From an uncultured Gemmatimonadales bacterium (GTDB lineage Bacteria > Gemmatimonadota > Gemmatimonadetes > Gemmatimonadales > GWC2-71-9): a stretch of 64,000 nt of DNA. Positions 352 to 53,099 of this stretch are shown piece after piece. The notes under the pieces were generated by a model. It searched no databases. It was not told the DNA's origin and was given only the letters and a program-made list of their open reading frames with translations. A program made the position numbers and the translations under genes. The stretch is from positions 1,463,125 through 1,527,124 of the forward strand of contig CAVWRM010000001.1 in assembly GCA_963757525.1 (NCBI GenBank), written 5' to 3'. Numbering within the stretch: position 1 is the stretch's first letter; the number at the start of each line of letters is the position of its first letter.

Positions 352-419
352 CGCCCGGTCTGGAGTAAGGTTCTTCGGAGTCTAGCACCCTCCCCTTGCC
401 ACGCAAGGGGTGCGCATCC

Positions 420-451
420 TTTCGCCCTTTCGCCCTTTCGCCCTTTCGGGC
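420..451. repeat. Tandem octamer array: TTTCGCCC x3 plus TTTCGGGC
   Basis: Read directly as tttcgccc tttcgccc tttcgccc tttcgggc, about 30 nt upstream of the kinase GTG at 484. The same octamer array recurs at 50408-50455 upstream of the closest paralogue. Confidence 0.9.
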
Positions 452-483: not shown

Positions 484-2883
484 GTGACCATCCCAACATC
501 CCTGGCCGACGCCCTGCGCGAGCGGTACGCGCTCGACCGCGAGCTCGGCCAGGGTGGCATGGCCACGGTGTACCTGGGACGGGACCTGCGGCACGACCGC
601 GCCGTCGCGATCAAGGTGCTCAAGCCCGAGTTGGCGGCCGCCATCGGGGCCGAACGGTTCCTCGCCGAGATCAAGACGACGGCCAATCTGCGGCACCCGC
701 ACATCCTGCCCCTCTACGACTCGGGTGAGGCGGCGGGCTTCCTCTATTACGTCATGCCCTTCGTGGACGGTGAATCGCTCCGCGACCGGCTCACCCGGCA
801 GAAACAGCTTCCCATCGACGAGGCGCTCGGCATCGCGCGTGAGGTGGCCGACGCGCTGGGCTATGCCCACGCCAGGGGCATCGTCCATCGCGACATCAAG
901 CCGGAGAACATCCTGCTCGAGGGCGGCCACGCCGTAGTGGCAGACTTCGGGATCGCCCGCGCGATGAGCGTCGCCGGCGGCGATCGGCTGACCCAGACCG
1001 GGACCACCCTCGGCACTCCGCTGTACATGAGCCCCGAGCAGGCCGCCGGCAGCGACGATCTCGACGGCCGGAGCGATCTCTACAGCCTCGGCTGCGTGCT
1101 GTACGAGATGCTCGGCGGACAGGCGCCGTTCACCGGGCCCACGGCCGAAGCCGTGGTTCGCCAGCACGTGCTGACGGTCGCGGCGCCCATCACCAACCTG
1201 CGCCCGACGGTTCCGCCCGACGTCGCCGGCGCGCTCGCGCGGTCGCTGGCGAAGAATCCGGCGGACCGGTTCAACCCCGCCGCGCAGTTCGTCCAGGCCC
1301 TCTCGGGCACCGGCCTCGCCACGACGCGTGCGACGCCCGGCCCACCCGTGCCGCCCGCGACGGCCGTGCCGCCCGCGCCGCCCCCGCCGGGTACGCGGCG
1401 AAAGTGGCTGACCCTCGCAATCGGCCTGGTCCTCGTGCTCGGCGTGGCGGGGTTCCTGGCGGCACGATGGAAGGGCTCGCGCGCTGCCGGCGCCATCCGA
1501 TCGATCGCCGTGCTCCCGCTCGACAACTATTCGGCCGATTCCACCCAGGACTACTTCGCCGAAGGCATGACCGACGAGCTGACGACGGATCTGGCGACCA
1601 TCAGCCGGCTCCGGGTGACGTCGCGCGGATCGGCGATGCAGTTCAAGGGGAAGAACCGTCCCTCGACGCCCGAGATCGCGAAGGCGCTCGACGTCGATGC
1701 GATCCTGGAAGGCTCGGTCAGCCGCTCCGGCGACCGGGTGCGGATCACCGCCCAGCTCATCGACGCGCGGGCGGACCGGCACCTCTGGGCCAAGAGCTTC
1801 GAGCGCAGCTCGAGCGATGTCCTCGCGCTGCAGGCGGAGCTCGCCTCGGCCATCGCCGAGGAGATCGATGTCCAGCTCACGCCGAGCGAGCGGACCCGTC
1901 TGTCCGAAGCGCCGAGCGTCGATCCCCAGGCGCACGACGCCTACCTCAAGGGCCGCTATTTCTTCAACCGTCCGAGCGACGCCAACCTGCGCCTGGCTAT
2001 CGCGCAGTTCGAGGAGGCGGTGCGGCTGAGTCCCACTTTCGCGCCGGCGCACGCGGGATTGTCCGACGCCTATCTCTGGGCCGGCTACAACGAGGGGTTC
2101 ATCACCGCGAGCGAGGCCAAGCCCAGAGCGAGGGCGGGCGCCGAGCGGGCGGTGGAGCTGGACAGCAGCTCGGCCGAGGCGCACACCTCCCTGGGCGTCT
2201 ACAGGGCCTGGCTGGAGCATGACTGGGAGGGAAGCCTGCGGGAGTTGCGCCGGGCCATCGCGCTCAATCCCAACTACGCCTTCGCGCACGATCAGTACGG
2301 CCAGGTGCTCAGCGTCGTCGGGCAGATGGACAGCTCGATCGCGGAGGGCAAGCGCGCGATCGAGCTCGACCCGCTCTCGCCGTCGATCTTGATCGACTGC
2401 GTCTTCACCCACATGTACCTGCGGGACACGGCGCGGGTGAGGGAGCTGATCACGAGGGCGGGCGAGCTCGATCCGACCTTTTATGCCGTTCCCACGATGG
2501 ATGGCTGGATGGACCTCGAGATTGGGCGGTACCGTGCGGCGGTTCCCAAGCTGGAGCGTGCGGCGAAGATGGAGGCGCCGCCCTTCGTGACGGCGATCCT
2601 GGGTTATGCCTTCGGCGCGTCAGGCGACCGGGCCCGAGCGCAGGCTACGCTGAAGGATCTCGAGAAGATTTCGCCCAGGGGCCAGGTTGCGCCGTTCAAT
2701 GCGGGAATGATCCGCCTCGGCCTGGGCGACAAGGAGCAGGCGATCGCGGATTTCGAGCGGGCCTACGCCGCCGATTCGGAGTTCCTGTTCTGGCTCGTGC
2801 AGGATCACCTGTTCGATCCGCTGCGGTCGATGCCGCGGTTCGTCGCGCTGATGAAGAAGCTCAACTCTCCAGCAGCTTCTTGA
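484..2883 (+). CDS. Ser/Thr protein kinase with a TM segment, a periplasmic module and a TPR-like C-terminus
   Basis: Track ORF 61..2883 trimmed to GTG 484 by alignment with paralogues (N-termini ..L..AL..RY..RELG.GGMATVYL). Hanks motifs present: GQGGMATVY, AIKVL, HRDIKPENIL, DFG, GTPLYMSPEQ. TM helix LTLAIGLVLVLGVAGFLAA, then IAVLPLDNYS... and TPR-like repeats. Confidence 0.9.
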   Translation: MTIPTSLADALRERYALDRELGQGGMATVYLGRDLRHDRAVAIKVLKPELAAAIGAERFLAEIKTTANLRHPHILPLYDSGEAAGFLYYVMPFVDGESLRDRLTRQKQLPIDEALGIAREVADALGYAHARGIVHRDIKPENILLEGGHAVVADFGIARAMSVAGGDRLTQTGTTLGTPLYMSPEQAAGSDDLDGRSDLYSLGCVLYEMLGGQAPFTGPTAEAVVRQHVLTVAAPITNLRPTVPPDVAGALARSLAKNPADRFNPAAQFVQALSGTGLATTRATPGPPVPPATAVPPAPPPPGTRRKWLTLAIGLVLVLGVAGFLAARWKGSRAAGAIRSIAVLPLDNYSADSTQDYFAEGMTDELTTDLATISRLRVTSRGSAMQFKGKNRPSTPEIAKALDVDAILEGSVSRSGDRVRITAQLIDARADRHLWAKSFERSSSDVLALQAELASAIAEEIDVQLTPSERTRLSEAPSVDPQAHDAYLKGRYFFNRPSDANLRLAIAQFEEAVRLSPTFAPAHAGLSDAYLWAGYNEGFITASEAKPRARAGAERAVELDSSSAEAHTSLGVYRAWLEHDWEGSLRELRRAIALNPNYAFAHDQYGQVLSVVGQMDSSIAEGKRAIELDPLSPSILIDCVFTHMYLRDTARVRELITRAGELDPTFYAVPTMDGWMDLEIGRYRAAVPKLERAAKMEAPPFVTAILGYAFGASGDRARAQATLKDLEKISPRGQVAPFNAGMIRLGLGDKEQAIADFERAYAADSEFLFWLVQDHLFDPLRSMPRFVALMKKLNSPAAS
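2854..2881. terminator. Inverted repeat (AAGAAGCT-N12-AGCTTCTT) spanning the overlapping stops of two convergent kinase genes; possible bidirectional terminator hairpin
   Basis: Arms at 2854-2861 and 2874-2881 are exact reverse complements. There is no T-run, so a terminator role is only inferred. Confidence 0.3.
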
Positions 2884-8472: not shown

Positions 8473-11319
8473 ATGACGGAACCCGACAGCACCCGGTCCG
8501 ACCGGTGGGATCGGATCAAGACCATTGTCGGGCGCGCCTTGGAGCGAGGGCCCGACGAGCGGACCGCCTTCGTCGCCGCGGCCTGTGGCGACGACGTCGA
8601 GCTCAACCGCGAGGTTGAGTCACTGCTCGAGGCGCACAGCGCGTCGATTTCGTTCTTTCAGACGCCCCCGGCCGATCCCTCGAGCCCGAAGGCTTCCCAG
8701 GAGTTGGCCGAAGGCCAGACCTTGGGGTGCTATCGGGTGCTCCGCGCGTTGGGGCGCGGGGGTATGGCTACGGTGTACCTCGCGCACGATCTGCGGCATC
8801 GTCGCTCGGTGGCCCTCAAGGTCCTTCACCCCCATCTCGCGCTCGCGCTCGGTCCCGGCCGATTTCAGCGCGAGATCGAGCTGGCTGCCAATCTCAGCCA
8901 CCCGCACATCCTGCCGCTTCATGACTCCGGCGAGGAAGCCGGCCTCCTTTACTACGTCATGCCGTACGTCGAGGGCGAGACGCTCCGGGACCGGCTCCGC
9001 CGCGAGACTCGGCTCGCCGTCCCCGACGCGGTTCAGATCACCCTCGAGGTCGCCGACGCGCTGGCTCATGCCCACGCCCACGGCGTGATTCACCGCGACA
9101 TCAAGCCGGCGAACATCCTGCTCAATGGGGGCCACGCCGTGGTCGCCGATTTCGGGATCGCTCGATTGGTCGAGCCGGGCGGCGCCGAGCGTGTCACCGA
9201 GACTGGCATGATCGTCGGCACCGTGGGCTACATGTCGCCCGAGCAGGCGAGCGGCGACCGGCAGCTCGACGGCCGGAGCGACGTGTATAGCCTGGGCTGC
9301 GTCCTCTTCGAGATACTTGCGGGCGAGCCCCCATTCGACGGGCCGACAGTTCGGTCCATCCTCATCAGGCAGCTGCGCGACCCGCCGCCGAGAGTTCGCG
9401 GGCTCCGGCCGGAGCTGCCGGATCATCTCGACGAGGTGCTGGCGCGGGCGCTGGCGCCCGCTCCCGACGACCGATTCGGAACGGCTGCTGAATTCACGCA
9501 GGCGCTGCGGCAGTCCGGTGTGGCAGGGACAAGTCTCTGGCGACGGGCCGTCTCCCGCGCCCGGCGGAGCCGCGGAATGGCAGCGACGGCGATAGTCGCC
9601 GCCGGCGTCGCGCTCGTCGTGGCGGGAGCGTGGGTGACTGTCTCGCGTAGAGAGCGGAGCCTGCCGGAGCGTCCCGCCGGCAGAATCCTCGCGGTCCTCC
9701 CGTTCGAGAACCTGGGCGACTCGGCCGACGCCTACTTCGCCGCCGGCGTTAGCGATGAGATACGTAGCCGGTTGTCGTCGATCCCCGGGATTCAGGTCAT
9801 TGGTCGCGGCAGCTCCAACGAATACCGGCATTCGGACAAGACCGCCCAACAGATCGCCCGGGAGCTCGGCGTCAATTATCTCGTGACCGCCACCGTCCGC
9901 CCGGCTGATAGCGGCGCATCGCGGACGGTCCACCTCAATCCCGAATTGCTCGAGGTTGCTGGAAGCGGAGGGCCTCGGGCGATCTGGCAGGGTCCCTTCG
10001 CTGAGCCGGTCACGAACGTGTTCCGGGCCTACGACAGCATTGTCATGGGTGTGGCAAAGGCGATGGATCTTCCGGTCAGCGACAGCACCCGGACGGGGCT
10101 GGCGCGGCGGCCGACCAGGAACAGCGAGGCGTATGAGGCGTATCTCCAGGGCGAGGCCGACGGCCTCGGCAGAGGGGACCCGGGTACCTTGAGAGACGCC
10201 CTGCCGCATTACGCACGAGCGGTCGGTCTCGACTCCACCTTCGCCGAGGCCTGGGCCAGGCTCTCGACCGTGTACTCGCAACTCTACTTCAATGGGTCTC
10301 CATCGCCGGAATACGCCCGGCTCGCGGGTCTCGGGGCGGAGCGGGCGGTGGCTATCGCTCCCGATGAGTCGGCCAGCCACCTCGCTATGGGTTACTACCG
10401 CCAGTTCGTCACGCGTGACGTGGCGGGTGCGGCCGCGGAGTATAGCGCGGCACTGCGATCGAGCCCCGACAACCCCGAGCCGCTGGCGGCCATTGCGCAG
10501 ATCGAGCAGATCGCAGGCCTGTGGGACCAGGCCATCGCCCATTTTCAACGAGCGCAGCAGGTCGAGCCTCGAGCCGCCGGCGTCGCGTTGAACGTCGCGA
10601 TGTCGATGCTCTGGACTCGGCGGTATCCCGAGGCGGAGCGCGCCATCCAGCGCACGCTGGCCCTCGACCCTCACCATATCCCGGCTATTGAGATGGCCGC
10701 TATGATCGACGCGGCACGAGGCGATCTGGCCGCGGCCCGGGCGAGGATCGCGGGGGCCCCGCCGTCGGTGGCCCGGGACGCTCTCGCGGCTGAGTTTGCG
10801 ATGGTGTGGGATCTTGTCTGGATGCTGGACGAGTCGCAGCAGCAGGCCATCCTGCGCACGACCCCCAAAGCGTTCTTCGACGACCGGGGCATCTGGGGCG
10901 TGGTGCTGGCGCAGACGCTCTGGCTGCATGGCCAACGGGCGCTGGCGGCGAGCTACGCCGATTCCGCCCGCGTGACGCTGTCCGATCGCGTGCGGGAAAA
11001 CCCGAAGGACGACCAGCAGCACCTCCTTCTCGGATTGAGCCTGGCGTATCTCGGGCGGAAGGACGAGGCGATCCGGGAGGGACTGCGCGGGCTGGCCCTG
11101 GGCCCGATGTCGAGCGACGCGCTGTACGGGCCCTACAACCAGCACTTGCTGATCCGGATCTATCTCCTGACCGGAGAGCGGGACAAGGCGATCGAGGGCC
11201 TCGAGCGTCTGTTGAAGGTGCCGTACTTCCTTTCGCCCGGCTGGCTCAGGATCGACCCCACATTCCAGCCGCTCCGGGGCCATCCGCGATTCGAGCGTCT
11301 GCTCTCGGGAGCCCAGTAG
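8473..11319 (+). CDS. Ser/Thr protein kinase with an N-terminal extension, a TM segment, a periplasmic module and a TPR-like C-terminus
   Basis: 948-aa track ORF with Hanks motifs GRGGMATVYLAHDL, HRDIKPANIL, DFG and GTVGYMSPEQ. TM helix AIVAAGVALVVAGAWV. The C-terminal ~540 aa are homologous to 2861..4558. Confidence 0.9.
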   Translation: MTEPDSTRSDRWDRIKTIVGRALERGPDERTAFVAAACGDDVELNREVESLLEAHSASISFFQTPPADPSSPKASQELAEGQTLGCYRVLRALGRGGMATVYLAHDLRHRRSVALKVLHPHLALALGPGRFQREIELAANLSHPHILPLHDSGEEAGLLYYVMPYVEGETLRDRLRRETRLAVPDAVQITLEVADALAHAHAHGVIHRDIKPANILLNGGHAVVADFGIARLVEPGGAERVTETGMIVGTVGYMSPEQASGDRQLDGRSDVYSLGCVLFEILAGEPPFDGPTVRSILIRQLRDPPPRVRGLRPELPDHLDEVLARALAPAPDDRFGTAAEFTQALRQSGVAGTSLWRRAVSRARRSRGMAATAIVAAGVALVVAGAWVTVSRRERSLPERPAGRILAVLPFENLGDSADAYFAAGVSDEIRSRLSSIPGIQVIGRGSSNEYRHSDKTAQQIARELGVNYLVTATVRPADSGASRTVHLNPELLEVAGSGGPRAIWQGPFAEPVTNVFRAYDSIVMGVAKAMDLPVSDSTRTGLARRPTRNSEAYEAYLQGEADGLGRGDPGTLRDALPHYARAVGLDSTFAEAWARLSTVYSQLYFNGSPSPEYARLAGLGAERAVAIAPDESASHLAMGYYRQFVTRDVAGAAAEYSAALRSSPDNPEPLAAIAQIEQIAGLWDQAIAHFQRAQQVEPRAAGVALNVAMSMLWTRRYPEAERAIQRTLALDPHHIPAIEMAAMIDAARGDLAAARARIAGAPPSVARDALAAEFAMVWDLVWMLDESQQQAILRTTPKAFFDDRGIWGVVLAQTLWLHGQRALAASYADSARVTLSDRVRENPKDDQQHLLLGLSLAYLGRKDEAIREGLRGLALGPMSSDALYGPYNQHLLIRIYLLTGERDKAIEGLERLLKVPYFLSPGWLRIDPTFQPLRGHPRFERLLSGAQ

Positions 11320-18320: not shown

Positions 18321-20867
18321 ATGCCCGTACCGGACTCCCTGCGCGACTCCCTCAGCGACCGTTACACCGTCGACCGCGAGCTCGGCCGCGGCGGCATGGC
18401 CACCGTCTACCTCGCCCACGACCGGAAGCACGATCGCCAGGTCGCCCTCAAGGTCCTCCGGCCCGAGCTCGCCGCCGTCCTCGGCGCCGAGCGGTTCCTC
18501 GCCGAGATCCGGGTCACCGCCAACCTGCAGCACCCCAACCTGCTGCCGCTGTTCGAGTCGGGTGAGGCCGGCGGTTTCCTCTATTACGTCATGCCCTACG
18601 TCGAGGGCGAGACGCTCCGCGCCCGCCTCGAGCGCGAGCGCCAGCTCCCGGTGGATGAGACGGTTCGCCTGGTCACCCTCCTCGGGAACGCCCTCGCCTA
18701 CGCCCACGCCCGCGGCGTGATCCATCGGGACCTGAAGCCGGAGAACATCCTCCTCCAGTCGGGCCAGCCGGTGATCGCCGACTTCGGCATCGCGCTCGCC
18801 GTCGCCCAGGCCGGCGGACACTCGCGTCACCGAGACCGGCCTCTCCCTCGGCACCCCGCACTACATGAGCCCCGAGCAGGCCGCCGCCGAGCGGGAGATC
18901 GACGCCCGGTCCGACCAGTACGCCCTGGCCGCGGTGGCCTACGAGATGCTGCTCGGGCGAGCCGCCCCACACCGGACCCACGGCCCAGGCGATCATCGCG
19001 CGGCTCATGACCGAGCCGGTCCGCGACCTGCGCGCCACTCGGCCCGGCGTGCCCGTCGAGGTGGAGCGCGCCGTGACCCGCGGCGCTGTCGAAGTCGGCG
19101 GCCGACCGGTTCGCCTCCGTGAATGACTTCGTCGCCGCACTGACAACTCCCGCAGAGGCTGCATCGGAACGTCGCGCCGTCGCGCCGTCCCGCCGTTCCG
19201 CCGCGCTGCGCTGGATCATCCCTGCCGTTCTCGTCGCAGTCGCAGCGTTCGCCGTCAGCCGCATGCGACGCACCGGCCACACGGGCAGCGCCAACGCCCC
19301 CGACAATCTCCGCGTCGTCGCCGTCCTCCCCTTCCGCAACCTCTCGCGCGACACCGCGCAGCAGTACTTCAGCGCCGGCATGACCGAGGAGATCGCCACC
19401 CAGCTCTCCCGCGTCGCCGCGCTCCGCGTGCTGAGCCGCACCGCCACCGCGCAGTACGACACCGTGGGCGACCGGCTCCAGCGGATGTCGCGCGAGATGG
19501 GTGTGGGCAGCGTGGTGGACGGCAGCGTGCGTCTGGCCGGCGACCGGGTCCGCATCGCCGTCGAGCTGACCAGCGTGCGGACCGGCCAGTCGCTCTGGAC
19601 GGAGCAGTACGACCGGCAGCTCTCGGACCTGTTCGCGGTGCAGGACGACGTCGCCCACAAGGTGACGGCGGCACTCCGGGCCCGGCTCACTCCCGCCGAG
19701 GCCAAGCGGGTGGCCCACGCGCCGACCTCGAACATGGCGGCATACCAGGTCTACCTGCGGGCCCAGGACCTGAACCCCATTCAGCGCGCCGGGAACATCG
19801 CCCGCGCCGAGCTGCTGCGGCAGGCCATCGCGCTCGACACGGGATTCGCCGAGGCCTGGGCCCAGCTGGCGCGCAATCACTTGTTTCGGAGCGTGGCGGG
19901 CGAGCGGATCTACACCGACTCCGCGTTCATCGCCGCGCGAAAGGCCGTCGCGCTCGACCCCGAGCTGGCCGACGGCTGGTTCGCGCTCGGCGACCTGGAG
20001 AGCGTCGTCTTCAGGCTGTCCGATGCCCGGCGCGCCTACCTCAAGGCGCTGGAGCTGAACCCGAGCCACGGCGGCGCCATGGCCGACCTGGCTAACGTCT
20101 ACGTCGCCCTCGGCCGCTACGATGAAGCGCTCGACTGGTCGCTGCGCAATGAGCAAATCAGTCCGACCGAATCCCACGGCCCCTACCACGTCACCCTCGG
20201 CCTGATGCCGCTCGACGACGACTCGGCCACCAGCCGCTATCTGCTCGCCGCGGAGCGGCGCTTCCCGGCCGAGCCCAGGATCCAGATACTGCTGTCCTGG
20301 CTCGACCTGAGGCGCGGGTCAAACCAGGCAGCCCTCGAGCGGGTCCGCCGCGTGCTGCGGAGCGATCCCGACAACACCGAGGTGCCGCCGAACCTGGCCG
20401 AGCTGGCGGTGGTGGTGGAAGCACCCGACGCCGAGCGGCTCATCGAGCCGCTGGCCCGCCAGGACCCCGAGGCGATCGGGCAGATGTTTCCCGAGTCGCT
20501 CCGGTCGCTCTATGCCCTGACCCTCCATCGCCGGGGGGACACCCGTCGCGCCGCCGAGCTGTGGCAGGCCTCGGCCGCCGCGGCGCAGCGGCACCTCGAT
20601 GCCGGCCAGGAGAGCTACAACGCCCCGATGGAGCTGGCCGCGATCAACGCGATCCAGGGTCAGACCGGCGCGGCGCTCGAATGGCTCGAGCGCGGCTATC
20701 GGGCCGGATGGAGGGATGCCCGGCTCCTGAATCTCGATCCCTTCTTCGCCTCGGTGCGGCGGGAGCCGCGATATCAGGCCCTGGTCACCGCCATGACGCA
20801 GGATGTCGCGGAGATGAGGAAGCGCGCGGCGGCCGCGCATCCAGCACTGTTCGGCCCGCCGCGCTAA
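18321..20867 (+). pseudogene. Ser/Thr protein kinase (kinase-TM-periplasmic/TPR) interrupted by three single-nucleotide insertions
   Basis: Track ORFs 18321..19010, 18865..19122 and 19119..20867 are consecutive pieces of one kinase. The pieces are [12 protein letters not shown] / [27 protein letters not shown] / [27 protein letters not shown] / [18 protein letters not shown]... The frame moves 0>1>2>0 at about 18816, 18957 and 19082. Each shift is explained by one extra G relative to paralogues. Confidence 0.8.
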
Positions 20868-27241: not shown

Positions 27242-30200
27242 GCCCCGACCGTGTGGAGGAGCTGTTCGAGCGCGCCCGCTCGATGGGCGCCGAGGCCCGG
27301 GCCTCGTTCCTGGCCGAAGCCTGTGGCGACGATTCCCAACTGGAGCAGGAGCTGACCTCCCTGCTCGCCCACGCGGAGCCCGCCGAGTCGTTCTTTGCCG
27401 GGCTGGCCGAAGCCGTCGTCTCGCCCGCAGTCGGTCACGAGGTCGGCCACTACCGGCTGGAAGGCATCCTGGGAACCGGCGGTATGGGTACAGTCTATCG
27501 TGCCCACGACACTCGGCTCGACCGGATGGTGGCCCTCAAGTTTCTTCCCCTGCATCTCAGTGCCCACCCCGAGGCCCGGGAACGATTCCTGGTCGAGGCC
27601 CGCGCCGCGGCTGCCCTGGAGCACCCCAACGTCTGCAGCATTCATGAGATCGGAGACACCGACGACGGCCGGCCGTTCATCGCCATGGCCTGCTACGAAG
27701 GGGAGACGCTCAAGGAGCGCCTGAGTCGAGGCCGGCTGTCGCCCCGGGAGGCGGTGGATATCGCCGTACAGCTGGCCTGCGGCCTCGGCGCTGCGCACGC
27801 GCGCGGCATCGTTCACCGGGACGTCAAGCCGGGCAACATCATGGTCTGCGCCGATGGCACGGTCCGCCTGCTGGATTTCGGGCTGGCGAAGATGGCCGAT
27901 ATCAACCTCACTGGTCCCGGGGCGACGCCGGGCACCATCGCCTACATGTCGCCGGAGCACGCCCGCGGCGACGCGGTGACGCACCTGACCGATCTGTGGA
28001 GCCTTGGTGTCGTGCTCTACGAGATGCTCTCGGGGGAGCGCCCATTTCGCGGCGGCAACGACCGCGCCGTCATCCAGTCGATCCTCCACGATCAGCCGAC
28101 GCTTCCTCCACCTGCCAATGCCATCCCGCGCCTGCCCCGGATCGTGAAGCGCCTGCTGCGGAAGGCGCCGGAGGAGCGGTATCAGACGACGGACGAGCTG
28201 CTGTCCGATCTCGGACGGACGCATCCCGCAGGTCGGCTCGACGCTGCGGACGGCTGGGTGCGGACCCACCTCCGGACGCTCTCCGTGAGCGTCGCAGGTC
28301 TCGTCGTGGCGGTCGCGCTGCTCTTCCTGGTCCGGCCGGTCCACCCATCCGGGACCGCCGCGCCCCCACCCGGTGCGACGTCGCGGGCTCCCACCATCGC
28401 GGTGCTTCCGTTCACCGTGCGCGGCCCGAACCTCGACGTCTGGCGCGAGGGGATGGTGGATCTTCTCTCCCTCGGGCTCGACGGAGCCGCCGGGATTCGG
28501 GCGATCGACAGTCGCACGCTCCTCGCCCGCTGGCACCAGGAGATTGGGGACACCTCCGTCACCGATCTCGCTCGGGCGCTGGGCGTCGCTCGCCGGAGCG
28601 AGGCGCGCTATGCGCTGGTCGGCTCCGCGGTCGCGTCGGGACCGCGCGTCCGATTGGGTGGGGAGGTGTACGACGTCGCGAGCGGCAATGTCATGGGGCC
28701 GGTGCAGGTGGAAGGGCCGTCCGACTCGGTGCTGGCGCTCCTGGATCGCCTGGGCATGCAGACGCTCGGTGTCGTGCTGAAGAAAAATCCGGGCGAGCTC
28801 CCCGCACTCGATCTGGCTGCGGTGACGACCACGTCGCTCATGGCGCTCAAGGCGTACCTCGAGGGCGAGGACCACTATCGGCGCTCCGAGTTTCGCCAGG
28901 CGACTGAAGCGTGGGAGCGGGCCGTGGGAGCGGACCCTCAGTTCGCGTTGCCCCATCTCGGGCTGGTGGACTCGTATGCGTGGGAGGGTGACGACGGCCC
29001 GACGCGGGTCCCGCCGCATCTCGAGCGCGCCCGGAGACTGGCCGAACGGCTGCCGATTCGGGAACGCACGATGGTGCAGGCCCGCCTGGCGGTGTACACC
29101 GGTGATCCCGAGGCGGTTCCCACGATCCGCGAAGCCATCCGGAAATACCCTGACGCCGCCGAGGCGTGGTACGCGCTGGGAGAGGTGTATTTCCACCAGG
29201 CGCTGGCATGGGGTGGCCCGGAGGACGCGCAACAGGCCTTCCGGAGGGCGGCGGAGCTCCAGCCGACGATGGCTCCGTACCGCCTGCATCTCCTCGACCT
29301 GGCGTTCATCTGGAAGCCCGATAGCGCGGCTATCGCGCGCGAGCTCGAGGCCTATGGCCGGCTGGCCCCGGAAGCCGCCGAAATGCGAGCCGGCCGGATC
29401 GCGCTCGCCCTGGCCTTTGGTGACACTGGCGCCCGTGCTCGAGTCAGGGCTCGGCTCGCCACCCTGGATTCCCAAGCGGCGTTCGAGGTCTATTGCTTTC
29501 TGTTCCACCCTCGCTTCTCCGACCAGAGGGAAGCGGTCTTTCCGGCTCTGGACCCCCACTTCGGCGCGAGCGGGCGTGCCGGCATTCATGAGGCGCGGGT
29601 CCGGCTCCTCGGGCTCATGGACGGTCGGGTTCACGACGCGTTGGCCACGCTGGCCGATTCCTCGAACCCGAGCTCTGTCGGGTACTGCGGCCCCCTGTAC
29701 CTGTCGGTGCGGGGAATGCCCGTGCCAGAACGGACGCTGCGGCAAAGCCTGGCTGCCGCCCAGGCGGACCCGTCGCTGTTCTCCACTCGGCTCGCTGCAA
29801 CCTGTGCCACTGCCACCGCGGCACGGCTGGGCGATTGGAAGGCCTACCGGGCCATGCTGTCCCGCATGCGGGAGAACGCGGCCCGTCAACTGGCCGCCGG
29901 CGACAGTCACGGCGCCAGGCGGTGGGACTGGGCCGTCCACGCCTCCGAGGCACATGGGCTCTGGCGCCGTGGCCGGAAGGCGGAGGCCCTGCGTGCGTTC
30001 GAGGGCACGCTTGCAGGAGATCAGGGCTGGTTCACGCTCTGGAACGTGGGCCAGCTCTCGCTCGAGCTCGGCCGACTGGACCAGGCCGAGCGCGCCTTCC
30101 GGACGCTCTGGCGACAGGACGGGACCCCGTCCTACCTGCAGCTCGCCCGGATCCTTGAGCGGACCGGCCGGCGCGCCGAGGCACTCGAGGCCTACCGGTT

Positions 30201-47820: not shown

Positions 47821-48699
47821 ATGAAGGCGCTCAGGATGGCTGTTACCGGATTCGTCGCGATCACCGCATGCTCCCGATCCGCCCCGGAACGTGGGACCGA
47901 GGCCAGCCGGACACCCGACACCTACCACGAGGCCGCCGCAGCTCGGCAGGGCTTGGTCCCCCTGAGCGCCGTGCCCCAGTCCGGGCCCGCCTCACCCCCG
48001 GCCTCGGCGCGAGCCTCCGCCGGGCGTCCAGCTCCCCGGAGCCAGGGTTCCGAGTCCGTGATCGTGGATACATCCCCCTATGCGACCGCGGAACGCGATA
48101 CCGGCATAACCACTGATACGATGGGCTATCGCGCGTACTCGGGCGCCGATGGCGCTCGATCGGCCGGCCCCGGACGCGCCAATGCCGTCGTGGTGGGCAC
48201 GGTGATTCATGTGAGCCTCCGGGACTCGATCGACTCGAAGCGCGATTCGAGCGGGAAGGAGATTTCCGGGATGGTCATGCAGAACGTCACCGGACCGGGC
48301 GGAGAGGTCCTGGTGCGCGCGGGATCGCCGGTGATGCTCACCATCTCCCGCCTCCGGCCGGGCCGCGGCAGCGGCCAGGGCGCCATCGAGGTCCATCCCG
48401 ATTCGATTACGCTCGAGGGCCGCATGCGAAAGCTGGAGGCCACGATCGCGTCGGTGCCGTACGAGCTCAGAGGCCGCGGCGTGACCGGTGAAGATGCGGC
48501 CAAGGTCGGGATCGGGACGGTGGGCGGCGCCGTGGTGGGCCGAGTGATCACCGGCAAGACCAAGGGCGCCGTCGTCGGCGGCGTGGTCGGCGCGGCGGGT
48601 GGCGCCGTGGTCGCGTCGCAGACGGCGGCAAAGGACGTGGTGGTAGGGGCTCGAACGCCGGTCGAGATGGTGCTCACCGCTCCGCTCGTCGTCCGCTAA
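47821..48699 (+). CDS. Lipoprotein with a C-terminal glycine-zipper segment
   Basis: ATG 47821 with GGGAGGA upstream and lipobox FVAITAC. Glycine zipper GIGTVGGAVVGRVITGKTKGAVVGGVVGAAGGAVVA. Confidence 0.55.
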   Translation: MKALRMAVTGFVAITACSRSAPERGTEASRTPDTYHEAAAARQGLVPLSAVPQSGPASPPASARASAGRPAPRSQGSESVIVDTSPYATAERDTGITTDTMGYRAYSGADGARSAGPGRANAVVVGTVIHVSLRDSIDSKRDSSGKEISGMVMQNVTGPGGEVLVRAGSPVMLTISRLRPGRGSGQGAIEVHPDSITLEGRMRKLEATIASVPYELRGRGVTGEDAAKVGIGTVGGAVVGRVITGKTKGAVVGGVVGAAGGAVVASQTAAKDVVVGARTPVEMVLTAPLVVR

Positions 48700-50351
48700 C
48701 CCCTCAGCCGCACCCGCGGGCCGATGCGCAGCTCATGTCCTTCGTGCGAAAGAAGAACCTCTGCCACGGGGCGGGCCTCCCGGGAACGGGGTTGGTGCAT
48801 GACCCACCACTCCTCCGCTCGCTGGGCGGTCCATGCCGAGGTCAGGGGAACGCGGTCCAGGCGGGCGCTGAACGCATCCGCGCTCGGTGGACGCCGCGCA
48901 GGCTCCTTCTCCAGACACTCCATGACGAGATCCTCGAGCGACGCCGGGATGGGCAGCTCGATCCGCGTCGATGGCCTCGTCGGGGGCGCCTGTGCGTGCT
49001 GGATCATCACCTGCATGACGGTCTCGCCCTCGAAGACCATCGTGCCGGTGAGGAGCCAGTAGGCGACGCAGCCCAGCGCGTAGAGGTCGACCCGATGATC
49101 GGTGTCGGTGGCGCCGAGGACCACCTCGGGCGCCATGTAGCCGGGTGTGCCGCTCCAGCTGCTTTCGCCGCTGAGGTTGACGGCATCACGGTCGGCGCGC
49201 CGAGCGCTGTCGAGCTTGACGAGTCCGAAGTCGAGCACTTTGACGAAATCGAAGGTCGTGCCGGCCCGACTGAGGACGATGTTCGCGGGCTTGATGTCGC
49301 GGTGCACCAGGCCGTTGGCGTGTGCGTCCTGGAGCGCCGAGCAGACCTGGGCCAGGATGTGGACGACACGCTCAGCCGGAAGCGGCCCGTGCTGCCGGAC
49401 GAGTGTGTCGAGGTCGAGACCGTCGAGCAGCTCCATCACGTAGTACAGCCGCCCATCCTCGGCGACGCCGAAATCGTAGAGTTGGACCGTGTGCGGGGAC
49501 GTGAGCGCCGCTGTGGCGCGCGCTTCCCGCTCGAAGCGCCGCATGAGCAGCTCGGGGTCGCCGGACGCGGCTGCCACCGCCTGGGGGCGGATGAGCTTGA
49601 TCGCCGCTGGCCGGATCAGCAGGCGGTGGCGCGCGCGCCACACTTCTCCCATGCCACCTCCACCGATCCTGTCTTCGAGGAGATACTGCCCCAGCTCGGT
49701 CGCTTCGACGACCTGCCGTCGAAGTCCGTACAGGACGCGTGAAACGATGGTGGCCAGCGTGGTCCCCAGAACGCTCCAGAGTACGGTGTTGAGCGTCATG
49801 TGCAGCTTCTGATAGCCCGCGCTGAATCCGGGAAGGAACGCCGTGGGGTGATGACGAGTGATGCACACGACAACCGCCGGGGCGAAGACCAGGGCCGAGA
49901 GCAACAGGGTTCGCCCCGGCCTGGAGGGCATCAGGATGGCGCGGACCATGACCGTGACCGTCAGGGCCAGCAGCGTCTGCAGGATCTGCCCCTCGTCCTC
50001 GATCGTCATGAGAGAGAGGAACCCGCCGGCCACGACGAAGCTGACGGCGTCGAGCGCTCCCAGGCTCCATAACGAGAGCCTGGCCCGAGTCGCCAGCAGC
50101 CAGAGCAGGGCCATCGTCAAGCTGGCGAGAAGGTGTCCGAGCGCCACCGGTCCGCGCACCACGGCAAGGAAGGGCGCGCCGCCGATCAGCGTCAGACTGG
50201 CGAGGAGGAAGAGGTAGAACCCGAACGACACGAGGAAGAGCGTCTTGCCGAGCAGCGCCAGGCGCTCCCGCACGAATCCCAATCCGCCGGACGTGTCGAA
50301 TCCCCGCTCGAGGAGGGGAGGCGCCGGAGGGTGGCTCGCGATGGTAGTCAT
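48696..50351 (-). CDS. Polytopic membrane Ser/Thr protein kinase (N-terminal multi-TM region, C-terminal kinase)
   Basis: About 6 TM helices in the first 210 aa. Then GGGGMGEVWRA, AIKLI, HRDIKPANIV, DFG and GTPGYMAPE. Confidence 0.85.
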   Translation of the reverse strand: MTTIASHPPAPPLLERGFDTSGGLGFVRERLALLGKTLFLVSFGFYLFLLASLTLIGGAPFLAVVRGPVALGHLLASLTMALLWLLATRARLSLWSLGALDAVSFVVAGGFLSLMTIEDEGQILQTLLALTVTVMVRAILMPSRPGRTLLLSALVFAPAVVVCITRHHPTAFLPGFSAGYQKLHMTLNTVLWSVLGTTLATIVSRVLYGLRRQVVEATELGQYLLEDRIGGGGMGEVWRARHRLLIRPAAIKLIRPQAVAAASGDPELLMRRFEREARATAALTSPHTVQLYDFGVAEDGRLYYVMELLDGLDLDTLVRQHGPLPAERVVHILAQVCSALQDAHANGLVHRDIKPANIVLSRAGTTFDFVKVLDFGLVKLDSARRADRDAVNLSGESSWSGTPGYMAPEVVLGATDTDHRVDLYALGCVAYWLLTGTMVFEGETVMQVMIQHAQAPPTRPSTRIELPIPASLEDLVMECLEKEPARRPPSADAFSARLDRVPLTSAWTAQRAEEWWVMHQPRSREARPVAEVLLSHEGHELRIGPRVRLRG

Positions 50352-50354
50352 GGT

Positions 50355-50455
50355 GGCGAATTCTAGGGCGAAATGACGAAATGGCGAACCGCCTATCCAG
50401 CTACTGGTTTCGCCCTTTCGCCCTCTCGCCTTTTCGCCTTTTCGCCCGTTCGCCT
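50355..50455. repeat. TTCGCC-type octamer arrays in both orientations within a divergent kinase-kinase intergenic region
   Basis: Direct array at 50408-50455: tttcgccc tttcgccc tctcgcct tttcgcct tttcgccc gttcgcct. Inverted array at 50366-50389: gggcgaaa tgacgaaa tggcgaac, plus ggcgaa at 50355-50360. Confidence 0.9.
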
Positions 50456-50474
50456 TATCCTAGATGCACCCCTC

Positions 50475-53099
50475 ATGACCCAACCTCCCTCCCGCCTCGC
50501 GGCCGCCCTGGCCGACCGCTACCGCATCGAGCGCGAGCTCGGCGCCGGCGGCATGGCGACGGTCTACCTCGGGCACGATCTCCGCCACGACCGGAAGGTC
50601 GCCATCAAGCTGCTCAAGCCCGAGCTCGCCGCCGTGATCGGCGCGGAGCGGTTCCTGAGCGAGATCCGAACCACCGCCAACCTCCAGCATCCGCACATCC
50701 TGCCGCTGTTCGACTCGGGTGAGGCCGACGGCTTCCTCTTCTACGCGATGCCGTTCGTCGAAGGCGAATCGCTGCGCGACCGGCTCGCGCGGGAGAAGCA
50801 GCTGCCGGTGGGCGACGCGGTCCGGATCGCCACCGAGGTCGCGAGCGCCCTCGACTACGCCCACCGCCACGGCGTCATCCACCGGGACATCAAGCCCGAG
50901 AACATCCTGCTGCACGATGGCTCGGCGCTCGTGGCCGACTTCGGTATCGCGCTCGCTGCCAGCAAGGCCGGCGGGACCCGCATCACCGAGACCGGTATGT
51001 CGATCGGGACGCCGCACTACATGTCGCCCGAGCAGGCGATGGGTGAGCGCGAGATCACCGCCCGGAGCGACATCTACGCGCTCGGCGCGGTCACTTACGA
51101 GATGCTGATCGGCGAGCCGCCCTTCACCGGTCCTACCGCGCAGGCCATCGTGGCCCTGGTGCTGACCGAGGACCCGCGGCCGCTGCTCCCCCGCCGGCGC
51201 TCCATCCCGCCCGAGGTCGAGGAGGCCGTCCTCACCTCGCTCGAGAAGCTCCCGGCCGACCGGTTCGCCACCGCGCACGAGTTCGCCGAGCATCTCGGCG
51301 CCGAGCGGACCAGCCGCCGCACAGGCGCCCGCGCGCGTGCCACCGCGGACGCGCCATCGTGGCGCCGATCGGCCGTGCTCGTGGCGGGCGGCGCCGCACT
51401 CATCGTTGCGGGCTATCTCGCCGGCGCTCGCCGGTCGCACAGCGCCGCGCTGCCGATGAGCTTCGGCTCCGTGGACAGGGTGACCTGGGATCCCGCCCTC
51501 GAGGTGCTGCCGGCGATCTCCCCCGACGGGAGAACGGTGGCCTACGCGAGCGGCACGCCGGTCCGCATGCGGGTGTTCGTCCGGCCGGTGGCCGGCGGCC
51601 GCCGCATCGCGCTCACCGACGACACGACCCAGGTCCAGTCGCATCCGCGCTGGTCGCCCGACGGAAGCCGGGTGCTCTTTCTCGAGCGGGGCGGCGTGGT
51701 GAGCGTGCCCGCCAGCGGCGGCGCCGAGACCGCGGAAGTGCCGCCGGGGCGAACCGGGCCGGTGATCTCGGCGGCGTGGGCGCCCGACGGCAAGCGGATC
51801 GCGTACGTGATCGGCGACTCGGTCTTCGTCCACGAGCCTCGCGGCGATTCGCACGGAATCGCCCGGGTGTTCGAGGCCCACGGCTGCGCCTGGAGTCCGG
51901 ACGCGGCACAACTCGCGTGCGTCTCGGGCAACGCCATCGCGCTCACGCCGGGGACCCTGTTCGGCAACGCCTCGCCCAGTCGGGTGGTGAGCGTGCGCGT
52001 GAGTGATGGCCGGGTCGTGCCGGTCACCGACAGCCTCTTTCCCAACCTGAGCCCCGCGTGGTCGCCCGACGGGCGCTGGGTCTACTACGTCTCCAGCCGC
52101 TTCGGTCCGCGCGACATCTTCGCCCAGGCGGTGGCCGGGGGAGCGCCGCGCGGGCCGGCGCTCCGGCTCACCACCGGCCTCAACGCCCACACCATCTCGC
52201 TCTCGGCGGACGGCAGGCGGATCGCGTATGCCGATCTCGCCATCGAGAGCAATGCCTGGTCCATCCCCGTGCCGGCACACCTGCCGGTCCCGGCGTCGAG
52301 CGCGATCCAGCTCACCCACGGGTCCCAGTTCGTCGAGACGACCCAGCTCTCCCGCGACGGCCACTGGGTGTACTACGACTCCGACGTGAGCGGCAACATG
52401 GACCTGTACCGCATGGCGCTGCCCGCCGGCGCGCCCGAGCGGCTCACCGCCGACTCGAGCGACGACTTCTGGCCCACACCGTCGCCCGACGGCCGTGAGG
52501 TCTCGTTCCACTCCTGGCGGGGAGGCTCGCGCGACATCTGGGTCATGCCGCTCGACGGCGGCCCGCTGCAGCGGGTGACCTCCTCGCCCGCCCAGGAGGC
52601 CATGGCCATGTGGGCGCCCGACGGGGATCAGCTTTCCTACTCGCTCTTCACGGAGCGGGGCGGCATCTGGACGGCGCGCCGGGTGAACGGCGCCTGGCAG
52701 AAGCCGGTCGAGCGCCTCGGCTGGGGCTTCTTCGCCAACTGGTCGCCCGACGGCCGCACGCTCGCCTTCGGCAGCTCGCTCACGAGTGGGTCGCTCTGGA
52801 CCATGCCGGCCGACTCGGGCGCACCCCGGCTCCTGGCCGACACCACCGGGCCTCGAGCGCTGCTGGGGGACCAGGTGCGATGGAGCGACGACGGCCGCTC
52901 CGTCTATACCCGGAACGCCGACGCGACCGGCACGACGTTCTGGCGCATCCCGCTCGGTGGTGGCACACCCGAGCGGATCGTGACGCTCGAAGGAGGACAG
53001 CGTTCGTCCGGCGGGTGGGGCAACGCGGCGGGCCGGCTGGTCTACGCGGTATCCGAAGAGCGGAGCGACCTGTGGGTCATGGAGGTCCGGACGCCGTAG
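50475..53099 (+). CDS. Ser/Thr protein kinase fused to a TolB-like beta-propeller
   Basis: Track ORF 50373..53099 trimmed to ATG 50475 (MTQPPSRLAAALADRYRIERELGAGGMATVYL). Kinase motifs HRDIKPENIL, DFG and [12 protein letters not shown] helix AVLVAGGAALIVAGYLAGA. Many WSPDG repeats follow. Confidence 0.9.
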   Translation: MTQPPSRLAAALADRYRIERELGAGGMATVYLGHDLRHDRKVAIKLLKPELAAVIGAERFLSEIRTTANLQHPHILPLFDSGEADGFLFYAMPFVEGESLRDRLAREKQLPVGDAVRIATEVASALDYAHRHGVIHRDIKPENILLHDGSALVADFGIALAASKAGGTRITETGMSIGTPHYMSPEQAMGEREITARSDIYALGAVTYEMLIGEPPFTGPTAQAIVALVLTEDPRPLLPRRRSIPPEVEEAVLTSLEKLPADRFATAHEFAEHLGAERTSRRTGARARATADAPSWRRSAVLVAGGAALIVAGYLAGARRSHSAALPMSFGSVDRVTWDPALEVLPAISPDGRTVAYASGTPVRMRVFVRPVAGGRRIALTDDTTQVQSHPRWSPDGSRVLFLERGGVVSVPASGGAETAEVPPGRTGPVISAAWAPDGKRIAYVIGDSVFVHEPRGDSHGIARVFEAHGCAWSPDAAQLACVSGNAIALTPGTLFGNASPSRVVSVRVSDGRVVPVTDSLFPNLSPAWSPDGRWVYYVSSRFGPRDIFAQAVAGGAPRGPALRLTTGLNAHTISLSADGRRIAYADLAIESNAWSIPVPAHLPVPASSAIQLTHGSQFVETTQLSRDGHWVYYDSDVSGNMDLYRMALPAGAPERLTADSSDDFWPTPSPDGREVSFHSWRGGSRDIWVMPLDGGPLQRVTSSPAQEAMAMWAPDGDQLSYSLFTERGGIWTARRVNGAWQKPVERLGWGFFANWSPDGRTLAFGSSLTSGSLWTMPADSGAPRLLADTTGPRALLGDQVRWSDDGRSVYTRNADATGTTFWRIPLGGGTPERIVTLEGGQRSSGGWGNAAGRLVYAVSEERSDLWVMEVRTP

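Follow-up and report, generated by a model that had tools for sequence, protein, structure and literature searches.

The 123-bp spacer at 50352-50474 of a 64-kb stretch of contig CAVWRM010000001.1 from an uncultured Gemmatimonadales bacterium (hereafter the window) separates two divergent Ser/Thr protein kinase genes and carries two oppositely oriented arrays of the octanucleotide TTTCGCCC, which has the core TTCGCC. We interpret these arrays as the two arms of a genome-specific octanucleotide simple sequence repeat (SSR) family lying in a divergent control region, where they would serve as a length-variable promoter element, and we put the probability of this reading at roughly 0.6. Its parts differ in strength: the identity of the arrays as a genome-specific, slippage-prone octamer repeat family with typical inverted-pair architecture is well supported, and we infer from it a length-variable promoter or leader role. 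The element joins a known class, the long-unit SSRs with inverted pairs of Xanthomonas, Geobacter and Haemophilus hmw. It is not a conserved operator, because the sequence of an operator would be kept, whereas here place and architecture are kept and the sequence turns over.

Results

Octamer arrays at two loci of one genome

The spacer lies between ATG 50351 of the minus-strand gene and ATG 50475 of the plus-strand gene. The direct array of six octamers is oriented toward the plus-strand kinase/beta-propeller gene and ends 19 nt short of its ATG. Tandem Repeats Finder (TRF) reports it at 50408-50454 with period 8, 5.9 copies, 87% matches, a score of 66 and the consensus TTTCGCCC, and also calls a weaker period-8 run at 50369-50388. 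The inverted array reads GTTCGCCA TTTCGTCA TTTCGCCC on the minus strand and is oriented toward the membrane-kinase gene. An earlier reading made from the sequence alone (the sequence-only reading) had placed the inverted units at 50366-50389, a further GGCGAA at 50355 and six direct octamers at 50408-50455 across an 18-nt gap, all of which we confirm; its description of the spacer as built almost entirely of octamers holds for their presence in both orientations and overstates their coverage, repeat units making up ~78 of the 123 nt (63%). Allowing at most one mismatch, TTCGCCNNTTCGCC is matched nine times in the window against 0.77 expected, a number reached in 0 of 100 shuffles, with seven of the matches in the spacer and the other two at 421-442. 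The 50408-50455 array is thus a head-to-tail array of a short unit in excess of chance, as is characteristic of SSRs. The TTCGCC hexamer itself is over-represented in the window (95 occurrences, 52 expected) and commoner on the plus strand, possibly a matter of codon usage.

The same unit forms a second, perfect array at 418-449, so that TTTCGCCC is found at two loci of one genome, 418-449 and 50355-50455; the search for further loci of this genome covered 64 kb. The sequence-only reading had pictured a single locus and missed this array, and of the locus-specific device that it described the arrays are real, while the locus proves to be a single representative of a repeat family that recurs through the genome and belongs to a known class. 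The start codon of a kinase-TPR paralog, GTG 484, follows the 418-449 array at ~35 nt, and this gene and a PadR regulator gene at 4-351 are divergently arranged. Pairing and folding checks gave no inverted partner for the 418-449 array; it is left unpaired between two perfect small hairpins at 392-410 and 446-465 (CCCCTTGC-cac-GCAAGGGG and TCGGGCAGA-tt-TCTGCCCGA), the latter of which shares bases with the final repeat unit and with a possible -10-like AGATTT. The window holds nine Ser/Thr kinase genes, and arrays stand upstream of only two of them.

Several other identities for the spacer arrays were considered. The database protein P0001 (874 amino acids, aa) is 100% identical to the plus-strand gene product and has its called start at ATG 50475, and the 50408-50455 array is therefore non-coding; an in-frame upstream ATG at 50373, which would make the array coding, is ruled out, as the starts of P0001 and of every ortholog coincide with the position of ATG 50475. 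A G-quadruplex requires at least four G-tracts of at least three G, and the G-rich strands of the 50408-50455 and 418-449 arrays have three GGG tracts each. A scan of 50200-50650 for intrinsic terminators returned 0 sites, and no 3' end is expected in the spacer because the flanking genes are divergent. An Rfam search at a permissive threshold gave only three sub-threshold chance matches to eukaryotic microRNA and small nucleolar RNA models (16-22 bits against gathering scores of 45-97; E 0.09-0.69).

Predicted pairing between the arrays

Pairing of the arms, over 22-25 nt and at 80-88% complementarity, is possible in five or more registers at 8-nt offsets. Minimum free energies of the spacer are -40.7 kcal/mol for plus-strand RNA (z -3.3), -48.8 kcal/mol for minus-strand RNA (z -3.8) and -23.4 kcal/mol for DNA (z -3.7), and the minus-strand RNA fold includes pairing next to the membrane-kinase start codon. 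The direct array can thus form a long hairpin with a complementary arm close by, as in the hmw type of repeat. These folds and registers support the proposal of the sequence-only reading that the two arrays are partly complementary and could fold into a long imperfect hairpin or cruciform, and do so for either strand; the folding of both strands that it had suggested as a check gives stable structures throughout (z -3.3 to -3.8). The array hairpins of relatives are far stronger than that of the window, with fold z-scores of -6.0 (locus L203) and -9.2 (L200).

Place kept and unit changed in orthologous control regions

Homologs assign the organism to Gemmatimonadales. We compared the DNA upstream of orthologs of the plus-strand kinase at 80-83% protein identity, with the two closest orthologs, P0002 (85%) and P0004 (83%), left out; proteins are given P numbers and loci L numbers. 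Arrays or related units are found upstream of P0011, P0008 and P0005 (Table 1), and no array is found upstream of the kinase gene in the orthologs P0010, P0012, P0007 and P0006; the loci L199, L201, L213 and L216 are without one. The ortholog unit is YTACCGCC, in contrast to TTTCGCCC in the window, and YTACCGCC occurs at two to three places each in L200, L203 and L214. In these array-bearing orthologs the inverted partners use the locus's own unit: L200 has three inverted units (GGCGGTAG GGCGGTAA GGCGGTAA) 65 nt upstream, and a perfect TTGACA upstream of its direct array; L203-L212 have, ~430 nt farther upstream, a tight hairpin of four inverted and four direct CTACCGCC units; and in L214 and L215 the next intergenic region carries another inverted pair of the palindrome's unit. 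Across loci the arrays hold 3.9 to 7.5 units.

In alignment A1 all arrays fall at one position, adjoining a CATATT(G/C) box that every ortholog retains 11-15 nt before the ATG; in the window the position of this box is taken by CTTATCC/TATCCT, and the TATCCTAGAT box of the window aligns with it. The equivalent promoter reading in the orthologs would be (T/C)TACCG-17-CATATT. The box is present at L199, L200, L201, L202, L203, L213 and L214. Position and architecture persist while the sequence of the unit turns over. The conservation of site sequence expected of an operator is not seen in the orthologous control regions, since the unit differs or the array is absent. In the comparison of orthologous intergenic regions, which the sequence-only reading had called for, some orthologs have an array of a different unit at the homologous position, and others have none. 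Its suggestion of symmetric binding sites controlling both kinases is not supported, given units that differ between orthologs, orthologs without an array, a varying number of units, and arrays in many contexts and phyla.

A scan of metagenomes with the kinase protein retrieved mostly paralog-level relatives (38-83% identity) whose upstream regions are without arrays, and arrays are accordingly not a feature of the kinase family as such. In many of these paralogs (many of L119-L198), boxes of the type YAnnTTG (CATCTTG, TATCTTG, TATTTTG) stand 15-70 nt before the start, and among 128 upstream regions of related kinase genes 18 of 21 occurrences are at most 70 nt from the start. YAnnTTG may be a lineage-specific -10 motif, although 21 occurrences in 128 regions are too few to be firm. 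The -10 motif of Bacteroidota is TAnnTTTG, which the YAnnTTG and CATATT(G/C) boxes resemble. Upstream of these kinase starts no Shine-Dalgarno sequence is visible; C-rich runs precede the starts.

Two features of the P0008 loci are recorded here. At L203 4817-4852 (also in L204-L207 and L212) another period-8 unit, GCGCCTTC, is repeated 4.6 times and ends 15 nt before the next kinase ATG; with both GCGCCTTC and CTACCGCC arrays in the locus, unit families can thus number more than one per genome. On the minus strand of L203 at ~1050-1430 (the same in L204-L212), an uncalled open reading frame (ORF), which reads MIPFERFDAWKRAHRLALDVYEASDRWPRTERYELTAQVRRAC..., lies between the hairpin pair and the promoter array; we presume that it resembles the four-helix-bundle/23S rRNA intervening-sequence protein family.

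Variation in unit number on an identical background

The P0008 protein is the same in ten metagenome samples, in which the array has four units (three samples), five (six samples) or six (one sample). The flanks of these ten loci, 600 nt on the upstream and 2,700 nt on the downstream side of the array, show 0-2 differences in 3,300 nt. Length change by whole units on an otherwise identical background points to slipped-strand mispairing, acting much faster than point substitution. The fixed number and spacing of sites expected of an operator is not found, because otherwise identical strains have four, five or six units. An exact look-up of the kinase found no conspecific sequence of the window strain. 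In L208 and L211 the upstream flank differs in the same 2 nt, 8-9 nt before the CTACCGCC array (CCCACGACC to CCCAGGACC in L208 and to CCCGCGACC in L211), which accounts for both differences seen in the upstream flank among the ten loci and for two of the four flank differences overall; the border of the array may be a mutational hot spot.

Occurrence of octamer arrays in other genomes

In ~0.5 Mb of Gemmatimonadota-type DNA, made up of the window and, after removal of duplicates, the fetched loci, period 8 is found in 14 of the 23 short tandem arrays of at least three copies, and in 7 of 15 when loci chosen for their arrays are set aside; the shuffled control contained one array. A pattern scan for TTCGCCNNTTCGCCNNTTCGCC in one genome per species, which is biased to the TTCGCC core, found at least 118 stretches in Chloroflexota, Verrucomicrobiota, Acidobacteriota, Planctomycetota, Actinomycetota, Bacteroidota and others. 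Most of the matches listed look intergenic and a few, such as some Streptomyces loci and L004, are apparently coding. Among the matches listed, in nine of nine assemblies with several hits the loci share the same two filler bases, and each genome therefore has its own unit: genome-specific TTCGCCNN families are present in many phyla. An inverted partner within 200 nt (up to three mismatches in 16 allowed) accompanies 22 of the 126 TTCGCCNN arrays (17%) among these matches, compared with 5 and 8 in two composition-matched controls, and 18 of the 22 pairs have the order GGCGAA...TTCGCC seen in the window. Opposite-strand pairs are likewise present in L200, L203 and L214.

A specific association with kinases is ruled out by Gemmatimonadota arrays that follow relA/spoT (L106) or lie within or next to an unrelated ORF (L092). 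REP/RAYT-like mobile palindromes were also considered as an identity and set aside: the unit of the relatives has GTAG/CTAC and the window unit is without it, no search for a RAYT gene having been made. In L013 and L038, from the Clostridia metagenome-assembled genome RGIG2342, TTCGCC(A/T)A units sit inside a composite element of ~100 nt with inverted units and a conserved CTTTCCTTATWTTTCAAGG core; with multiple copies in each locus, this element resembles a dispersed mobile repeat more closely than it does a plain SSR.

Flanking genes, starts and -10-like boxes

Pfam assigns Pkinase domains to the products of both flanking genes (E 5e-44 and 1.5e-47) and PD40 beta-propeller repeats to that of the plus-strand gene. 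A promoter scan of the minus strand returned TCGCCA-16-TAGAAT, one site where 0.0 are expected, which can also be read as TTCGCC-17-TAGAAT and is a consensus match only. All three TTCGCC-oriented arms in the window face a start codon 3-35 nt away. Coordinates are collected in Table 1.

Table 1. Repeat arrays, candidate promoter boxes and genes in the window and at orthologous loci
Feature	Position	Strand	Basis or remark
Array of TTTCGCCC, 3.9 copies, perfect	418-449	+	TRF, pattern count
Paralogous Ser/Thr kinase with TPR repeats	484-2883	+	Pfam; kinase domain 64% identical to that of the gene at 50475
Membrane-anchored Ser/Thr protein kinase, 551 aa, Pkinase residues 225-493	48696-50351	-	ORF and Pfam
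Isolated fourth TTCGCC core (GGCGAA on plus strand)	50355-50360	-	3 nt ahead of membrane-kinase ATG
TAGAAT, -10-like hexamer for membrane-kinase gene	50360-50365	-	Promoter scan; ends 8 nt before ATG
Inverted array, three octamers, plus-strand reading GGGCGAAA TGACGAAA TGGCGAAC	50366-50389	-	Sequence, TRF, pattern count
18-nt spacer between arms, CGCCTATCCAGCTACTGG	50390-50407	.	Loop of potential hairpin; own small stem CCAGCTACTGG
Direct array, six octamers, TTTCGCCC TTTCGCCC TCTCGCCT TTTCGCCT TTTCGCCC GTTCGCCT	50408-50455	+	Sequence, TRF, pattern count
TATCCTAGAT, -10-like box adjoining last repeat unit (TTCGCC-17-TATCCT)	50456-50465	+	Putative promoter role
Ser/Thr protein kinase with C-terminal PD40/Tricorn-type beta-propeller, 874 aa	50475-53099	+	ORF, Pfam, P0001
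P0011 (L200): TTACCGCC, 7.5 copies, perfect			Ends 18 nt before ATG
P0008 (L203-L212): CTACCGCC, 4-6 copies			Upstream of kinase gene
P0005 (L214, L215): 22-nt perfect palindrome GGCGGTAGGGC/GCCCTACCGCC and two degenerate units			

Discussion

A proposed length-variable element in a divergent control region

The explanation we favour links the dynamics of the repeat to its position. Arrays of this type change length by slipped-strand mispairing much faster than point mutations accrue, and continual re-homogenisation lets the unit drift between species while the array stays in place. Inverted copies are often acquired, probably by strand-switching during replication, to give a hairpin-capable pair. 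Each TTCGCC-oriented arm runs up to a -10-like box, TATCCT/CTAGAT for the plus-strand gene and TAGAAT for the minus-strand gene, so that a TTCGCC core stands 17 nt ahead of either box; the arrays may constitute the weak -35/spacer part of back-to-back core promoters that would produce short-leader mRNAs. Gain or loss of a unit would leave the -35/-10 spacing intact, because the spacer itself is repeat, and at the same time would shift upstream DNA by 8 bp (~3/4 of a helical turn), including the other promoter 70-100 bp away, and give the hairpin or cruciform another length and register. Heritable, reversible and graded variation in the expression of one or both kinases would be expected to follow.

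Several points weigh against this interpretation. The length polymorphism is seen in the array of an ortholog (P0008), not in that of the window strain, and the direct array of the window, only 87% homogeneous, may be decaying and so be less mutable than the perfect arrays of its relatives. That the unit follows the genome could in part mean that an ancestral unit was retained, not that units were homogenised. The place of the arrays could be a transcribed leader and not a promoter, and the effect of copy number on expression is presumed. Among the matches listed, arrays occur in tandem, convergent and divergent spacers and ~23% lie in long ORFs, as classified approximately by a crude ORF model in place of a real gene caller; presence in every intergenic context and in ORFs fits a mutational phenomenon without a dedicated function.

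Alternative explanations

That last point bears most directly on the possibility, which we consider real and yet clearly less probable than the favoured reading, that the arrays are a neutral by-product, selfish or accidental, of strand switching and replication slippage in a lineage that readily slips by 8 nt, tolerated in intergenic DNA and without effect on the kinases. Besides their spread over all types of intergenic region, unconstrained coding linkers and many phyla, the several orthologs that have no array (L199, L201, L213 and L216) and the freedom of unit sequence and number to vary speak for neutrality, as does the degeneration already visible in the window array (87% matches). What a neutral origin accounts for less readily is the persistence of the array at the exact position of the CATATT box in species with ~20% kinase divergence, despite turnover of the unit. 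The perfection of the relatives' arrays, which we read as active maintenance, and the orientation of all three TTCGCC arms of the window toward nearby start codons point the same way, and an 8-bp insertion or deletion in a 123-bp divergent control region is unlikely to be neutral for expression. A transcribed 5'-leader hairpin of the hmw type, in which the mRNA of one gene starts beyond the far array so that both arms are transcribed, repeat number sets the length of the hairpin and the structure controls translation or RNase III processing, is unlikely. It would draw on the significantly stable RNA folds of both strands, with a minus-strand hairpin reaching to within 3 nt of the AUG, on the much stronger hairpins of the relatives, on the perfect TTGACA upstream of the direct array in L200, and on the precedent of H. 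influenzae hmw1A, where expression is inverse to repeat number (PMC12721329). Yet the promoter of each gene would then have to sit inside or at the very start of the other gene, and for the plus-strand gene the -10-like box conserved downstream of the array position in all orthologs argues against a leader; the 418-449 array, moreover, is without a complementary arm, and no Rfam match rises above noise.

Binding of the octamers by a sequence-specific, possibly genome-specific nucleoid or regulatory protein that co-regulates both kinases is improbable. The presence of one unit at several loci of a genome, in the window as in other assemblies, would suit such an operator array, as would the proposal of the paired octanucleotides of Geobacter metallireducens as global-regulator or IHF/HU sites (PMC2700814) and the PadR regulator gene (4-351) divergent from the 418-449 array. 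Against these stand a unit that is not conserved in orthologous control regions, a number of sites that varies among otherwise identical strains, an 8-bp spacing by which neighbouring sites would face different sides of the helix, the presence of arrays in coding linkers and at 3' ends, and the lack of a candidate binding protein. The operator reading is the weakest in that neither the sequence, nor the number, nor even the presence of the sites is conserved. We give very little credence to a cruciform that acts as a supercoiling sensor, extruded from the inverted arrays by negative supercoiling between the divergent promoters and coupling or insulating them. The location between divergent genes, the DNA fold (-23.4 kcal/mol, z -3.7) and the multiple pairing registers are compatible with it, whereas arms of only 80-88% complementarity and a loop of 18-44 nt, depending on the register, disfavour extrusion; similar inverted pairs also occur in tandem and 3' contexts, and the array at 418-449 has no partner.

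Published relatives of the element

The literature search found no report of such repeats in Gemmatimonadota. According to later summaries of the work of Mrazek (2007; via PMC4679880 and PMC4692102), SSRs with units of 5-11 nt are over-represented in some prokaryotic genomes, with heptamers commonest and slippage as the proposed mechanism, and the account in PMC4692102 adds that longer repeat runs are more frequent in non-pathogens with large, GC-rich genomes. As far as these summaries describe them, such SSRs share with the arrays reported here a short head-to-tail unit, a mostly non-coding location, a sporadic phylogeny, an attribution to polymerase slippage and a length that varies among close relatives; they differ in that heptamers are the commonest class in most genomes, whereas octamers dominate the sampled Gemmatimonadota DNA (14 of 23). 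The arrays also resemble GGGAATC of Xanthomonas and GGGGAYT of Nostoc, in which a genome-specific unit is spread over many intergenic loci (PMC4692102). Each Xanthomonas genome has ~185 GGGAATC arrays, including 70-75 opposite-strand pairs (Rehm et al. 2015, PMC4692102). There, too, close opposite-strand arrays may form a stem-loop or cruciform with the G-rich arm first (here in 18 of the 22 pairs among the matches listed), and length and sequence vary extensively between closely related species (PMC4692102). The Xanthomonas and Nostoc units differ in being 7 nt long and forming G-quadruplexes, with four units preferred, while here the unit is 8 nt and there are three GGG tracts; and the Xanthomonas arrays lie mostly downstream of an ORF (28 nt on average), with 7-8% between divergent ORFs, whereas those of the window are at gene starts.

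Geobacter metallireducens has 24 opposite-strand pairs of four tandem octanucleotides (Aklujkar et al. 2009, PMC2700814), the 'class 1/2 global regulator sites', which were proposed, without a test, to be global-regulator or IHF/HU sites. Their tandem octanucleotides (GTTGCTYN x4 or TCTCCGTS x3), the variable distance between the members of a pair, their 21-24 places in the genome and their absence from a sister species recall the present arrays. The sequence of the unit is different, however, the copy number was described as fixed at three to four, and some sites are tied to insertion sequence (IS) insertion, of which none is seen here.

Among the systems compared, the hmw genes of Haemophilus influenzae provide the sole experimentally dissected example of such an architecture. 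The (ATCTTTC)n repeat of hmw1A is transcribed and forms a long hairpin with a G-rich arm that is cut by RNase III, and expression falls with repeat number (PMC12721329). Shared by hmw1A/hmw2A and the present arrays are a long-unit SSR directly upstream of a gene, a partly complementary G-rich stretch and a polymorphic number of units. Transcription, RNase III cleavage and inverse coupling to expression are proven in hmw, whereas the present system is known from sequence alone; the hmw array, in an AT-rich, host-adapted pathogen, comprises 11 or more 7-nt units, in contrast to 3-6 units of 8 nt in a GC-rich soil bacterium, and its target is an adhesin where in the window two signalling kinases are concerned. 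TAACTGA arrays are found just upstream of start codons in marine Beggiatoaceae, cyanobacteria and Bacteroidetes (MacGregor 2015, PMC4679880). They likewise consist of 2-6 copies of one genome-wide unit, mostly a few nt upstream of starts without a canonical ribosome-binding site; unlike the arrays here they hardly ever occur in inverted form (a single indirect repeat among 170 sets), one and the same heptamer recurs across distant phyla where here the unit differs between related species, and the function proposed for them is translational.

Wider implications

What appears to be an elaborate symmetric operator is thus a fast-evolving repeat family, a warning against reading such arrays as regulator sites. 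The comparative series presents a clean natural example of the dynamics of long-unit SSRs in an uncultivated soil phylum, and positional persistence with turnover of the unit, population-level polymorphism of unit number and the preference of the lineage for octamers are its useful findings. If unit number tunes kinase expression, signalling capacity would vary stochastically and heritably, and the idea of the contingency locus would extend from host-adapted pathogens to free-living bacteria. A bolder idea, to which we assign a low likelihood, is that free-living soil Gemmatimonadota use octamer arrays as evolvable 'volume knobs' for their very large repertoire of Ser/Thr kinases, as contingency loci in non-pathogens. 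Were this true, each unit would co-evolve with a sequence-specific factor or with the replication machinery of its lineage, the inverted partner would be needed, as in hmw, both for control of expression and for change in repeat number, and the arrays in kinase linkers (window 19170-19203; L120, L141 and L151) would act as switches that, by frameshift, separate the kinase from its sensor domain.

Additional observations on kinase genes

The linker array at 19170-19203 of the window is a period-8 repeat (CGTCSCGC x4.2) in a juxtamembrane linker just after the kinase domain. Other Gemmatimonadota kinase genes contain period-8 arrays at L120 2327-2362, L141 2137-2189 and L151 382-412, and a period-9 array at L176 2741-2793. 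These four arrays share one position, immediately behind the ...F(A/E)xAxEFAxAL end of the kinase domain, and a change of one 8-nt unit in such an array would shift the frame and cut off the sensor domain. In the window kinase gene at 18321-20867, which contains the 19170-19203 array, the frame is lost at ~18820 and regained by ~19100, with stops at 19008 and ~19065; the gene either is a pseudogene or carries assembly indels. Three window kinases (N-terminal motifs at 8752, 27472 and 58227) have an N-terminal extension ahead of the kinase domain, and those with motifs at 27472 and 58227 directly follow ECF-sigma-like ORFs.

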